Shown one piece after another: positions 1 to 10,993 of a DNA stretch of 50,212 nt (position 1 is its first letter; each line of letters starts with the position of its first letter). The stretch comes from Escherichia coli. Lineage in GTDB: Bacteria; Pseudomonadota; Gammaproteobacteria; Enterobacterales; Enterobacteriaceae. The notes under the pieces were generated by a model. It was not told the origin of the DNA, ran no database searches, and saw nothing but the letters and a program-made list of their open reading frames with translations. Where the stretch lies: NCBI RefSeq assembly GCF_003334315.1, contig NZ_QOWR01000032.1; one strand, given 5' to 3'. The translations under genes and the position numbers were made by a program.

Positions 1-438
1 AGGCCGCAGTCGGTAACCTCGCGCATACAGCCGGGCAGTGACGTCATCGTCTGCGCGGAAATGGACGAACAGTGGGGCTATGTCGGGGCTAAATCGCGCC
101 AGCGCTGGCTGTTTTACGCGTATGACAGTCTCCGGAAGACGGTTGTTGCGCACGTATTCGGTGAACGCACTATGGCGACGCTGGGGCGTCTTATGAGCCT
201 GCTGTCACCCTTTGACGTGGTGATATGGATGACGGATGGCTGGCCGCTGTATGAATCCCGCCTGAAGGGAAAGCTGCACGTAATCAGCAAGCGATATACG
301 CAGCGAATTGAGCGGCATAACCTGAATCTGAGGCAGCACCTGGCACGGCTGGGACGGAAGTCGCTGTCGTTCTCAAAATCGGTGGAGCTGCATGACAAAG
401 TCATCGGGCATTATCTGAACATAAAACACTATCAATAA
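1..438 (+). CDS. insB: IS1 transposase InsB, 5'-truncated by window edge
   Basis: Frame 1 is open from base 1 ([20 protein letters not shown] then [24 protein letters not shown]...HYLNIKHYQ, stop 436..438); this is the C-terminal portion of IS1 InsB as I remember it. Confidence 0.9.
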
Positions 439-453
439 GTTGGAGTCATTACC
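1..453 (+). mobile_element. IS1 insertion sequence, 3' portion (window begins inside the element); right terminus ends at 453
   Basis: InsB-frame translation runs from base 1 through 438; element ends ...ATCAATAAGTTGGAGTCATTACC at 453, which matches the IS1 right inverted repeat as I recall it. Confidence 0.9.
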
Positions 454-1153
454 CACTTGCGTTATCGCGGTGAAAAACGACGTGTTGTTTATCATCTTCA
501 ATGAACGAACCATGCTGAATAGCCACTGCCATTGCCGCATCCAGTCCGCTCAAGGATGTTCCCATAATACCCACGTTACACGCATCGACCTTTGCTTCCA
601 TCAGGCCTGACCACGGGCTGGGAAAATACGTTCGGGTTGCTTCTTCTTCATCAGGCCAGACGTGACCCGTGGCAATCACCGCTAAATCAAACGTCTCGCT
701 GGGTAAATCCTGATTTGTAGCGAGCATGACGCCAGCATTTGTAATTTGCAGATCGGTAACCTGGCATGATTCATAAACAGCCACTGCAAATTTTTGCTTT
801 CGTGCCTGGTCTACTAATCGTAAAAATTGATCGCGGAAATATTCGCCCAGCAGAATTCGCGGTAAAAACTGACGATCGTGCAAGGTTTCTTTTTTAACGC
901 CATAACGCTGGAGATGGCTGGCTTCTTGCTTTTGTAGCCATTCGAGATACGTACAATAAATCGGCGGTATTTCAATACTGGCAATATTTGCCAGCATCAT
1001 TTTTGAGTTTTCCTCATCACTGTATGGCATCCCGACACCGGCCTCGTCAGCCTGCTCGAAGATAGAAATAGAAAGTGGAGTTTGTTGCTGTAGAAGCGAG
1101 AATAAGGTGTAGATCCCCGTAGGCCCGGCACCCACAATAGCAATTTTTTTCAT
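454..1153 (-). pseudogene. ydhS: ydhS (FAD/NAD(P)-binding oxidoreductase) 5' fragment, truncated by IS1 insertion
   Basis: Minus-strand ORF 449..1153 (234 aa) begins MKKIAIVGAGPTGIYTLFSL (Rossmann GxGxxG motif). Recalled YdhS is about 534 aa; here the frame runs into the IS1 terminus and stops at 449..451 inside IS1. Confidence 0.7.
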
Positions 1154-1244
1154 TGTTACTTACCTGTACGCATTCTTTCGAATTTAGTGTTATCAGATAA
1201 GTTTGGTTGAAATTTTTAGAATTTGAGAAATTTCAGACAGGGAT

Positions 1245-1266
1245 GAAAAGGGCGCTAACCGCCCTT
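1245..1266 (-). terminator. Hairpin downstream of ydhR (putative intrinsic terminator)
   Basis: Inverted repeat AAGGGCG-CTAACC-CGCCCTT just past the ydhR stop; on the minus strand it is followed by a modest T-rich stretch. Confidence 0.35.
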
Positions 1267-1278
1267 GATTAAATTCTG

Positions 1279-1584
1279 TCAGGCGAGTTTTGCCTGATTG
1301 ATTTGACTCAGTGGCTCATTGACATCGAAAACTTTGGCGACAACTTCCTCAACGCCGAGATTTTTCAGTCGGGCAGTGTGTTTTTCCAGATAGGCAAGGG
1401 CGCTTTTTTCATCAGTGAAAAGGTAGATCCCACCGGCTTCGTGGTTCTTTTCACTTTCGGTCCATACCTTCCACAGAAAACCAGGTTCCTGATTAATCGA
1501 CTCAGCAAGCGGTTTAAGCTGCTCAGCCATTGTGTCGCCAAATGGGCCATTGAAAGAAAAATGAAGTTGTAACAAAGTTGCCAT
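1279..1584 (-). CDS. ydhR: YdhR, putative monooxygenase (101 aa)
   Basis: ORF track 101 aa [22 protein letters not shown]...; length and position (next to valVW and ydhS) match K-12 ydhR. Confidence 0.85.
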
Positions 1585-1691
1585 AGCGATTCTCCTTCTG
1601 ATAACGCATACGAAGACAGTGTAAATCTTTTAACGTATTGGATACAGAGAAGAAACAGAGGGAAAAAGGAGAAGACCAGATTAAGAAAATC

Positions 1692-1768
1692 TGGTGCGTC
1701 CGAGTGGACTCGAACCACCGACCCCCACCATGTCAAGGTGGTGCTCTAACCAACTGAGCTACGGACGC
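1692..1768 (-). tRNA. tRNA-Val (anticodon GAC), 77 nt, distal copy of tandem pair
   Basis: Reverse complement reads GCGTCCGTAGCTCAGTTGGTTAGAGCACCACCTTGACATGGTGGGGGTCGGTGGTTCGAGTCCACTCGGACGCACCA: cloverleaf with GAC in the anticodon loop and 3' CCA. Corresponds to the valV/valW pair of K-12. Confidence 0.9.
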
Positions 1769-1772
1769 AGGA

Positions 1773-1849
1773 TGGTGCGTTCAATTGGACTCGAACCAAC
1801 GACCCCCACCATGTCAAGGTGGTGCTCTAACCAACTGAGCTATGAACGC
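1773..1849 (-). tRNA. tRNA-Val (anticodon GAC), 77 nt, proximal copy of tandem pair
   Basis: Reverse complement reads GCGTTCATAGCTCAGTTGGTTAGAGCACCACCTTGACATGGTGGGGGTCGTTGGTTCGAGTCCAATTGAACGCACCA; differs from the other copy only by compensatory changes in acceptor and T stems. Confidence 0.9.
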
Positions 1850-2156
1850 AACGTTGTAGGTGACAACGGGGACGAATATTAGCGGCAGAGTGGGAAGGTG
1901 GCAAGAGGCAAAACGTAATTTTCTGCGCTATTTCGACCGTTTGCAGAGCTTTTAAGCAAATTGGCTATATTTTGTTGATTTGCAAGGGCGATTTTTATTC
2001 AGGATCGCATTTACATCTGATACAACCCAATAATTCGTGTATCAGAGTTTAAACAGAGTTGTTTGCCACCATCTCAAATCTGTCGTGGATAAATCCTCCG
2101 TAGCCTTTACACTTAGGTAGCAATAAAGGCACACAGATGCAGCAAAGGAATAAATC

Positions 2157-3413
2157 ATGGGATCTGATGCGAAAAACTTGATGAGCGACGGGAATGTGCA
2201 AATTGTTAAGACCGGCGAGGTCATTGGCGCGACGCAACTTACTGAAGGCGAGTTGATTGTTGAAGCTGGCGGAAGAGCCGAAAATACCGTGGTCACGGGG
2301 GCTGGCTGGTTGAAAGTGGCAACCGGTGGGATCGCCAAATGCACACAGTACGGTAACAATGGCACGCTATCGGTCAGCGACGGTGCCATTGCCACAGATA
2401 TTGTTCAGTCCGAGGGAGGCGCAATTAGTCTCTCTACGCTCGCTACGGTTAATGGCCGCCATCCCGAAGGTGAATTCAGCGTTGATAAAGGTTATGCCTG
2501 CGGTTTGTTGCTGGAAAATGGCGGTAACCTGCGTGTACTGGAAGGCCATCGCGCGGAAAAAATCATTCTCGATCAAGAGGGCGGCCTGTTGGTTAATGGG
2601 ACAACCTCAGCGGTCGTGGTAGATGAAGGTGGTGAATTGTTGGTGTATCCAGGTGGGGAAGCCAGCAATTGTGAGATTAATCAGGGCGGCGTTTTTATGC
2701 TGGCCGGGAAAGCCAGTGATACGTTGCTTGCTGGTGGCACCATGAATAATCTCGGTGGTGAAGACTCTGACACTATTGTTGAGAATGGATCCATTTATCG
2801 TCTGGGGACGGATGGCCTTCAGCTCTACAGTTCCGGTAAGACGCAAAACCTGTCCGTGAATGTGGGTGGTCGGGCTGAAGTGCATGCCGGTACGCTGGAA
2901 AATGCGGTAATACAAGGTGGAACAGTGATCCTGTTGTCACCCACCAGCGCGGACGAAAATTTTGTCGTAGAGGAAGATCGCGCACCGGTTGAACTGACCG
3001 GGAGTGTTGCATTACTGGACGGCGCTTCAATGATTATTGGTTATGGCGCAGAGCTGCAACAATCAACGATTACTGTACAGCAGGGCGGTGTGTTGATTCT
3101 CGACGGCAGTACGGTAAAAGGTGACAGTGTCACTTTCAGTGTTGGTAACATCAATCTGAATGGCGGAAAACTGTGGCTGATCACTGGTGCGGCAACGCAT
3201 GTGCAACTGAAAGTGAAACGCCTGCGCGGAGAGGGAGCGATTTGCCTGCAAACCAGTGCGAAAGAAATTTCACCTGACTTCATCAATGTGAAAGGGGAAG
3301 TTACCGGTGATATACACGTTGAGATAACAGATGCCAGTCGGCAAACTCTGTGTAACGCACTGAAACTACAGCCAGACGAAGACGGGATTGGCGCAACGCT
3401 CCAGCCTGCGTAA
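2157..3413 (+). CDS. ydhQ: YdhQ, autotransporter-passenger-like / adhesin-related protein (418 aa)
   Basis: ORF 418 aa MGSDAKNLMSDGNVQIVKTGEV..., Gly/Thr/Val-rich repeats typical of beta-helical passenger domains; length matches K-12 YdhQ. Confidence 0.85.
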   Translation: MGSDAKNLMSDGNVQIVKTGEVIGATQLTEGELIVEAGGRAENTVVTGAGWLKVATGGIAKCTQYGNNGTLSVSDGAIATDIVQSEGGAISLSTLATVNGRHPEGEFSVDKGYACGLLLENGGNLRVLEGHRAEKIILDQEGGLLVNGTTSAVVVDEGGELLVYPGGEASNCEINQGGVFMLAGKASDTLLAGGTMNNLGGEDSDTIVENGSIYRLGTDGLQLYSSGKTQNLSVNVGGRAEVHAGTLENAVIQGGTVILLSPTSADENFVVEEDRAPVELTGSVALLDGASMIIGYGAELQQSTITVQQGGVLILDGSTVKGDSVTFSVGNINLNGGKLWLITGAATHVQLKVKRLRGEGAICLQTSAKEISPDFINVKGEVTGDIHVEITDASRQTLCNALKLQPDEDGIGATLQPA

Positions 3414-10440: not shown

Positions 10441-10484
10441 TCCATTTCACTCCAGACCCTAACTTCAGCTCCTGCAAAATCGCA

Positions 10485-10500
10485 AGGTAAACGTTTGCCT
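10485..10500. promoter_or_regulatory. PurR operator (pur box) in the purR 5' leader
   Basis: AGGTAAACGTTTGCCT, about 45 bp upstream of the purR start codon; second copy of the AAACGTTTGC core. Confidence 0.6.
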
Positions 10501-10738
10501 TTACACACCTTACGCACAACAAAAGTGTTGCGGTACGCCGGAAAAACGACACGGAGCGTCAGGAAGGGGTCAATGGCCAGTACGCAAATAGTGTAAGCGT
10601 GGAATTTTGGCCGATCTTGACGAAAAGGGGAAGTGGTAAAAACACTTATCATTATAAATGACGGGAGATTTTTTCATCACAGTGTGTAAAAATGCGTAAT
10701 ATCACTTTTTGTGTGGTAATAAAAAAGGAGAAAACTTG

Positions 10739-10828
10739 ATGAGCACCGACCTTAAATTTTCACTGGTAACAACGATTATCGTCCTCGGTTTGATCGTAGC
10801 CGTGGGTTTGACTGCCGCGCTGCACTGA
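10739..10828 (+). CDS. ynhF: YnhF small membrane protein (29 aa)
   Basis: ATG at 10739 preceded by AAGGAG RBS; translation MSTDLKFSLVTTIIVLGLIVAVGLTAALH (single TM helix); matches my memory of K-12 YnhF. Absent from the ORF track because it is below the length cutoff. Confidence 0.65.
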   Translation: MSTDLKFSLVTTIIVLGLIVAVGLTAALH

Positions 10829-10993
10829 TTTCCTCTCGAGGGAGCGCGTTCTCCCTCGCATCTCCTTCCTGTTTGTTAGCAAAATGGCAAAAGTGTTTTC
10901 TCTTTTTGTTATTTTCATTTTTTTGTGATTGCTGTCATGCTTTCGCCACTTTAATGAATATCGCGTAATGACGCGAAGAGGTGGAGATAAGGC

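Follow-up and report, generated by a model that had tools for sequence, protein, structure and literature searches.

The two tandem tRNA genes found in this stretch of Escherichia coli DNA (50,212 nucleotides, hereafter the window) are almost certainly the valV–valW operon of E. coli and Shigella, which would encode two equivalent isodecoders derived from an old duplication with compensatory divergence in the stems. The pair is already known and was described decades ago; its recognition here is correct and ordinary. The direct evidence consists of the sequence, the structure, the identity to K-12, the conservation, and the published expression and processing data. ARAGORN found exactly two tRNA genes in the window, both tRNA-Val genes with the anticodon GAC and both on the minus strand. 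A previous reading of the sequence alone had placed the tandem genes at positions 1692-1849, in agreement with the limits given by ARAGORN (1692-1768 and 1773-1849), with the strand left unstated. As minus-strand genes are read from right to left, the copy that begins with GCGTTCA (1849..1773) precedes the GCGTCCG copy in the order of transcription. The upstream gene is valV (1849..1773, minus strand), which encodes tRNA-Val2B, and the downstream gene is valW (1768..1692, minus strand), which encodes tRNA-Val2A. The spacer between them occupies positions 1769-1772 (minus strand), reads UCCU on the RNA strand, and has the 4-bp length originally reported.

The comparison with valV and valW of K-12, which had been proposed as a check, showed 100% identity for both genes and for the UCCU spacer. 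The upstream gene matched positions 1746435-1746511 of NC_000913 and the downstream gene matched positions 1746516-1746592. In the K-12 MG1655 annotation, valV is b1665 and valW is b1666, both described as tRNA-Val(GAC). Along the whole interval from the start of ydhQ to the start of ydhR (window 2157..1586, minus strand) there was a single mismatch with K-12 MG1655 in 572 bp, located outside the tRNA genes. The genes, the spacer, the promoter, the leader, the downstream hairpin and the ydhQ and ydhR neighbors are all the same in the K-12 operon and in the window. The assignment of each gene to its RNA product was based on published oligonucleotide probes that serve to purify single E. coli tRNAs, from a study in which mature tRNA-Val2A and tRNA-Val2B were both isolated from cells (PMC1851638). 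The Val2A probe is an exact match to window positions 1695-1724, inside valW, and the Val2B probe is an exact match to positions 1776-1805, inside valV. Accordingly, valV corresponds to tRNA-Val2B and valW to tRNA-Val2A.

Both genes are 77 nt long, include the CCA end, and have the complete set of stems of a cloverleaf, with 7 bp in the acceptor, 4 bp in the D, 5 bp in the anticodon and 5 bp in the T stem and zero non-standard pairs flagged by cmscan. Covariance-model scoring, the other check that had been suggested, gave 70.1 bits for valV and 69.6 bits for valW with the Rfam tRNA model (RF00005), compared with a gathering score of 29. The matches covered the complete model length (1-71) and no pair was disrupted. 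A separate check of the pairs found none broken, with pair 49:65 being G-U in both copies. The AGTTGGTTA D-loop, the TTCGAGT T-loop and the terminal ACCA are present in both copies, which therefore have G18 G19, T54 T55 C56 and the 3' CCA. Thermodynamic folding of the individual tRNAs resulted in z-scores of about -2.1 and recovered the acceptor, D and anticodon stems, while the T arm was mis-drawn. Modest z-scores and a misplaced T arm are usual for unmodified tRNA sequences and do not speak against the cloverleaf, which is supported by the covariance model and by covariation.

A pairwise alignment showed that the copies are identical at 71 of the 77 positions. The six differences are located at linear positions 5, 7, 51, 65, 67 and 69, which correspond to positions 5, 7, 50, 64, 66 and 68 in the standard numbering. 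They constitute three base pairs, all of them changed on both sides and Watson-Crick in both copies, in agreement with the original statement that the differences are confined to paired positions. Pair 5:68 is U-A in valV and C-G in valW, pair 7:66 is A-U in valV and G-C in valW, and pair 50:64 is U-A in valV and G-C in valW. The acceptor stem is GCGUUCA/UGAACGC in valV, where the T-stem pair is U50-A64, and GCGUCCG/CGGACGC in valW, where the T-stem pair is G50-C64. The stem strings quoted in the sequence-only reading (GCGTCCG/CGGACGC versus GCGTTCA/TGAACGC, and GTGG/CCAC versus TTGG/CCAA) are those of the minus, RNA-sense strand. A core of 43 identical nucleotides lies between the differing sites of the two genes.

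These differences coincide with previous descriptions of the RNAs. Goodenbour and Pan (PMC1693877) reported that tRNA-Val2A and tRNA-Val2B share the anticodon GAC and differ at four residues of the acceptor stem and two of the T stem, and that both Val2 RNAs were known from direct RNA sequencing before genome sequencing. The E. coli tRNA-Thr1/Thr3 (GGU) and tRNA-Tyr1/Tyr2 (GUA) are also same-anticodon pairs known by direct RNA sequencing, in which differences of the tRNA body are limited to stems or the variable arm; the former are distinguished by the T-stem and nucleotide 9, and the latter by the variable arm (PMC1693877). Unlike these two pairs, the Val2 tRNAs differ in the acceptor and T stems, and their genes are adjacent and belong to one transcript. 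Given the shared anticodon, "isodecoders" is a more exact term than "isoacceptors", the word first used for them, although the latter is not wrong.

Redundant duplicates can decay, and this general expectation is the sole point behind the idea that one of the copies is a non-functional or decaying duplicate, i.e., a pseudo-tRNA. Random decay would break pairs, whereas all substitutions between valV and valW are paired. Each copy scores about 70 bits and has no disrupted pair, the conservation of both extends to essentially all E. coli, with identical sequences in many genera, and specific probes allowed both RNAs to be purified from cells. A pseudo-tRNA at this locus is thus extremely improbable. 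The claim that pairing is preserved and that both genes are probably functional stands on the same scores, the same intact stems and the isolation of both mature RNAs from E. coli.

Mobile elements often integrate in tRNA genes. The duplication, or the divergence between the copies, could then be the scar of a mobile element integrated in a tRNA gene, such as the att site of an island or a prophage. Also speaking for such an origin is the proximity of an IS1, the nearest mobile element, which interrupts ydhS at a distance of 1.24 kb from valW. The 3' part of this IS1 occupies window positions 1-453; it encodes the C-terminus of the transposase at 61-438, its terminal inverted repeat ends at about position 453, and homology to K-12 begins at position 454. 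The insertion left a truncated ydhS (449-1153, minus strand) that conserves residues 1-233 of 535. However, the IS1 lies outside the tRNA locus, which was left untouched. While ydhS in K-12 does not include IS1, in the window this gene, located two genes downstream, is cut at about position 453, and the tRNA locus shows no difference. The exact IS1–ydhS junction was found as one continuous match in no complete E. coli genome of the collection. Nine complete E. coli genomes cover at least 80% of the IS1–ydhS query, in two pieces. The window may accordingly come from a Shigella or from an E. coli lineage rich in IS1.

Other evidence also argues against an integration scar. The genes are flanked by ydhR (1584..1279, minus strand) on the valW side and by ydhQ (2157..3413, plus strand) on the valV side, and the neighbors are core genes in the K-12 order, namely ydhS, ydhR, ydhQ, mdtK, ribE, cfa, punC and punR. 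In an identical strain, the genes annotated in the 12 kb to each side of the locus include no integrase, and none was found among the window open reading frames tested. A search of the 50-kb window with the 25-nt tRNA 3' end, allowing up to 3 mismatches, identified only the two genes themselves. Furthermore, neither copy is truncated, and their arrangement is ancestral in Enterobacteriaceae. An integrative element at the tRNA pair, which would be one without an integrase and without an att-like repeat, was rejected, and the probability that the duplication or the differences originated in this way is negligible. These neighbors and the unrepeated tRNA 3' end bear out the original statement that neither gene has an integrase or prophage remnant attached to it.

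A consensus scan identified a sigma-70 promoter for valV valW at positions 1876..1904 of the minus strand. The -35 hexamer is TTGCCA (1904..1899), and after a 17-nt spacer it is followed by the -10 hexamer TAATAT (1881..1876) and a G+C-rich stretch, TCGTCCCC. The scanned promoter agrees with the published one, with matches at 5/6 positions in the -35 and 4/6 in the -10 hexamer, and both hexamers are identical in K-12. The motif CTTGCC...GCTAATATTCGTCCCC is retained at most loci of other genera that have the valV-type and valW-type genes in tandem. Mohanty and Kushner (PMC2190699) described a single dicistronic valV valW transcript produced from this sigma-70 promoter (-35 5/6, -10 4/6), and their primer extension placed the start sites on two C residues that precede the mature 5' end of valV by 18-19 nt. 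These residues most likely correspond to window positions 1868 and 1869, with a possible deviation of 1 nt, and the 5' leader of the primary transcript is then at 1850..1869 (minus strand).

The processing of this transcript has been studied by others. The UCCU spacer does not have an RNase E site (PMC2190699), and RNase P alone separates valV from valW at this spacer (PMC2190699, PMC4176162). Exonucleases remove the 3' tail, and ydhR is not co-transcribed with valV valW (PMC2190699). Agrawal et al. (PMC4176162) found that Val2, i.e., the products of valV and valW taken together, is 38-47% aminoacylated in vivo. Both Val2A and Val2B are among the E. coli tRNAs listed with acp3U47. The pathway begins at one sigma-70 promoter with the synthesis of a single dicistronic RNA of valV and valW. 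RNase P cuts at the 5' end of each tRNA, including the 3' side of the UCCU spacer, and removes the leader, and the tail is trimmed by 3' exonucleases. The expected products are tRNA-Val2B from the upstream gene and tRNA-Val2A from the downstream gene, both of which would be charged by ValRS and used in translation on GUC/GUU.

A terminator-like scan, together with the fold energy, identified a hairpin, ACCAGAUU-uucuu-AAUCUGGU, at positions 1695..1675 of the minus strand, directly after valW. Its 5' arm uses the discriminator A73 and the CCA of tRNA-Val2A itself. The stem has 8 bp and an energy of -10.3 kcal/mol (z = -4.4), none of 200 shuffled sequences was as stable, and a C/U-rich tail (CUUCUCCUUUUUCCC) follows. 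Hairpins at the same position were found in Citrobacter, Enterobacter, Lelliottia and Pseudescherichia, with stems of up to 13 bp that start from G71/C72 and energies of -14 to -19 kcal/mol, as well as in other Escherichia species, with stems of 8-9 bp and about -9.5 kcal/mol. The loci with an equivalent hairpin include L004, L009, L019, L043, L097 and others. The stem sequences vary between genera and the pairing is kept. Among the matches listed, 31 of the 83 arrays with no further copy downstream have a hairpin of -9 kcal/mol or lower that uses the tRNA 3' end, a count that includes a few that are not the conserved tRNA-tail hairpin. This hairpin on the CCA end of valW, the one mildly new element of the analysis, disagrees with the published account, according to which the sequence downstream of valW lacks predicted secondary structure and termination is taken to be Rho-dependent (PMC2190699). 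Possible roles for the hairpin are those of a weak intrinsic terminator or of a 3'-end structure. That it acts as a functional terminator or guard is a tentative suggestion and, on balance, a doubtful one.

The same region gave a match to another Rfam family, HPnc0260 ("Bacterial antisense RNA", named from Helicobacter pylori), at positions 1568-1730 of the plus strand with 112 bits. The match is antisense to the 3' half of valW and to the spacer between valW and ydhR. At the equivalent place, the scores were 64-68 bits in Citrobacter, Enterobacter and Salmonella, and there was no match at the locus in Serratia, Pantoea, Aeromonas and Malikia. In the HPnc0260 model, the 3' third corresponds to a tRNA 3' half in reverse complement. 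An antisense RNA was rejected as the interpretation of this match, which is on the opposite strand and is probably driven largely by the complement of the tRNA 3' half. The match is probably not meaningful, despite its high score in E. coli. A full-length match to STnc550, an enterobacterial sRNA family, was found at positions 10441-10831 (plus strand, 396.5 bits) and is unrelated to the tRNA pair.

The 158-bp tRNA pair was matched in all 5426 complete E. coli genomes, and the surrounding 1.2-kb region was also matched in 5426/5426. In the search with the 158-bp pair, 2044 genomes fell in a "95-99% identity" band. Sequence variants were rejected as the explanation, as the band arises artificially when off-register pieces of the tandem repeat are joined. 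K-12 MG1655 falls in it at 97.5%, though it is truly 100% identical. The median of 2 places per genome has its origin in the same joining artefact. Genomes with a single copy were for this purpose counted by means of a junction-specific query instead of the 158-bp match.

A single tRNA-Val gene was present at the locus in 2 of the 5426 genomes, those of strains Q65 (NZ_CP180222.1) and EC7518 (NZ_CP085183.1). This single gene (in strain Q65, locus L002, 1502-1578) is a chimera of the 5' half of valV (U5, A7) and the 3' half of valW (G50-C64, C66, G68). In the resulting tRNA-Val, U5·G68 is a wobble pair and A7·C66 a mismatch, and the Rfam score is 60.5 bits, compared with about 70 for the regular genes. 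This is the product expected of recombination within the 43-nt identical core, and the chimera is either genuine or the result of a collapsed assembly. Recombinants between valV and valW come out mis-paired, as the compensatory differences imply. Two frog-derived E. coli strains, ET490 and ET670, have an IS1A within the ydhR–valVW–ydhQ region that matches window positions 1200-2400. In these strains (H1 and H2) the match is in two pieces, separated by about 0.8 kb more than in the query.

Tandem tRNA-Val(GAC) genes were then compared across species, using one genome per species and a search pattern consisting of two Val(GAC) D-arm/anticodon-arm cores 44-74 nt apart. At least 120 loci were found, and the matches listed included 117 usable tandem pairs, in which the D and anticodon stems cannot vary, as the search pattern itself had fixed them. 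Among the matches listed, the exact E. coli configuration, with a valV-type gene upstream and a valW-type gene downstream, each 100% identical to its E. coli counterpart, occurs in 49 of the 117 pairs. These 49 belong, among the matches listed, to about 18 named genera of Enterobacteriaceae, including Escherichia, Citrobacter, Enterobacter, Lelliottia, Kosakonia, Cedecea, Mangrovibacter, Buttiauxella and Franconibacter. No sequence is more widespread than the valW form (GCGUCCG), which accounts for 91 of 234 genes among the matches listed. The commonest spacer between tandem copies is 4 nt, found in 36/117 pairs among the matches listed, and a further copy follows the matched pair in 32 of the 115 arrays scanned within the same set.

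The differences between tandem copies are located almost entirely in the stems. In the 117 pairs among the matches listed, 620 of 639 differences are at paired positions, and the stem pairs that differ on both sides number 300, compared with 20 that differ on one side only. No pair is broken in 230 of the 234 genes among the matches listed. The remaining four are two off-register extractions (one with an indel and one starting inside the preceding gene) and two genes with one mismatch each. Covariation was assessed on 25 distinct sequences with the cloverleaf imposed, where 99.6% of the cells are paired, compared with 86.1% after shuffling and 29-51% when the partners are slid. In the same 25 sequences, both-side changes were detected in 7/7 acceptor pairs and 4/5 T-stem pairs, and the observed covariation score was reached by 0 of 500 shuffles.

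Arrays from Enterobacterales and from Gammaproteobacteria and Betaproteobacteria likewise consist of at least two head-to-tail Val(GAC) genes with short spacers and nearly always paired stem differences, but unlike in the E. coli pair, the stem sequences and the copy number vary. In Pantoea and Erwinia, a GCGCUCU or GCGUUCU form is found upstream of the valW form, and the downstream copy of Salmonella arizonae has two further paired changes. Identical copies were observed in 15 of the 117 pairs among the matches listed, for example in Serratia and Edwardsiella. The downstream copy of Candidatus Pantoea persica (L015) has an altered variable-loop/T-arm region (GGTGGTGGGTTGATAG...) outside the 77-nt register, and this second Val(GAC) gene may be degraded or indel-bearing in the symbiont genome.

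The positions of the three differing pairs can be compared with the known determinants of valine tRNA function. E. coli ValRS recognizes A35, C36 and A73 as major identity elements and G20 and G45 as minor ones, besides the acceptor pairs G3-C70 and U4-A69 in a regular helix (PMC9976931, a review of tRNA identity). A35, C36, A73, G45, G3-C70 and U4-A69 are present and the same in both copies. Both copies have U at position 20, like K-12 valV and valW; the minor element G20 was defined on tRNA-Val1. Since the K-12 genes have the same U, the missing G20 is no argument against valine identity. Discrimination between the copies by ValRS was rejected as an explanation for the differences, with pairs 5:68, 7:66 and 50:64 all outside the listed determinants. 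The affinity for EF-Tu is set by the T-stem pairs 49-65, 50-64 and 51-63, and in the additive table of Schrader and Uhlenbeck (PMC3239215) the contribution of 50-64 is 0.0 kcal/mol for both U-A and G-C. The other two pairs, 49-65 (G-U) and 51-63 (U-A), are the same in both copies. Tuning of the EF-Tu affinity was consequently discarded as the likely difference between Val2A and Val2B, for 50:64 scores 0.0 kcal/mol either way and the other two pairs are shared. The three paired changes are predicted to be neutral by the available ValRS and EF-Tu rules.

Because the differing pairs avoid the ValRS elements and are predicted to be neutral for EF-Tu, the simplest reading is that Val2A and Val2B are functionally equivalent isodecoders. 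It is this functional equivalence, together with a neutral compensatory origin of the differences, that we infer from the data described above. The published aminoacylation and processing work mostly probes Val2A and Val2B together. An alternative is that the isodecoders are specialized, the stem differences being adaptive through stability, modification, processing rate or nuclease resistance, with selection keeping both forms. This is compatible with the exact pair being unchanged at all six positions in the 49 species, and with its persistence despite a 43-nt identical core that could support gene conversion. It is also compatible with the rarity of the collapse into one gene in E. coli and with the paired changes that distinguish tandem copies in other lineages, such as Pantoea, Aeromonas and Malikia. 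However, the location of the differing pairs outside the listed ValRS determinants and their predicted EF-Tu neutrality count against it. Distinct forms are not required, because the two copies are identical in Serratia, Edwardsiella and some other lineages. Moreover, slow evolution of tRNA genes and selection against mis-paired chimeras also explain the persistence. Adaptive specialization is for these reasons unlikely. Somewhat less unlikely, but still doubtful, is the broader proposal that the two forms are actively kept distinct or that the compensatory pairs act as a recombination barrier.

The two genes probably come from an old tandem duplication, followed by divergence at three stem pairs through compensatory substitutions that left the cloverleaf intact. 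The two equivalent isodecoders would jointly set the gene dosage, which is two, for the anticodon GAC. Should active maintenance be true, Val2A and Val2B may differ in stability, modification, processing order or nuclease sensitivity. Should the compensatory pairs be a barrier, a recombinant between the copies would be a mis-paired tRNA of lower quality, as is the chimera in 2 of the 5426 genomes. The valV–valW pair matters little beyond its correct annotation. It illustrates, in textbook fashion, both compensatory substitution in an RNA helix and bacterial isodecoders, and the operon has been used as a model of RNase P processing of polycistronic tRNA transcripts. What the cross-species tabulation adds is only that the exact valV–valW pair is old and stable within Enterobacteriaceae.
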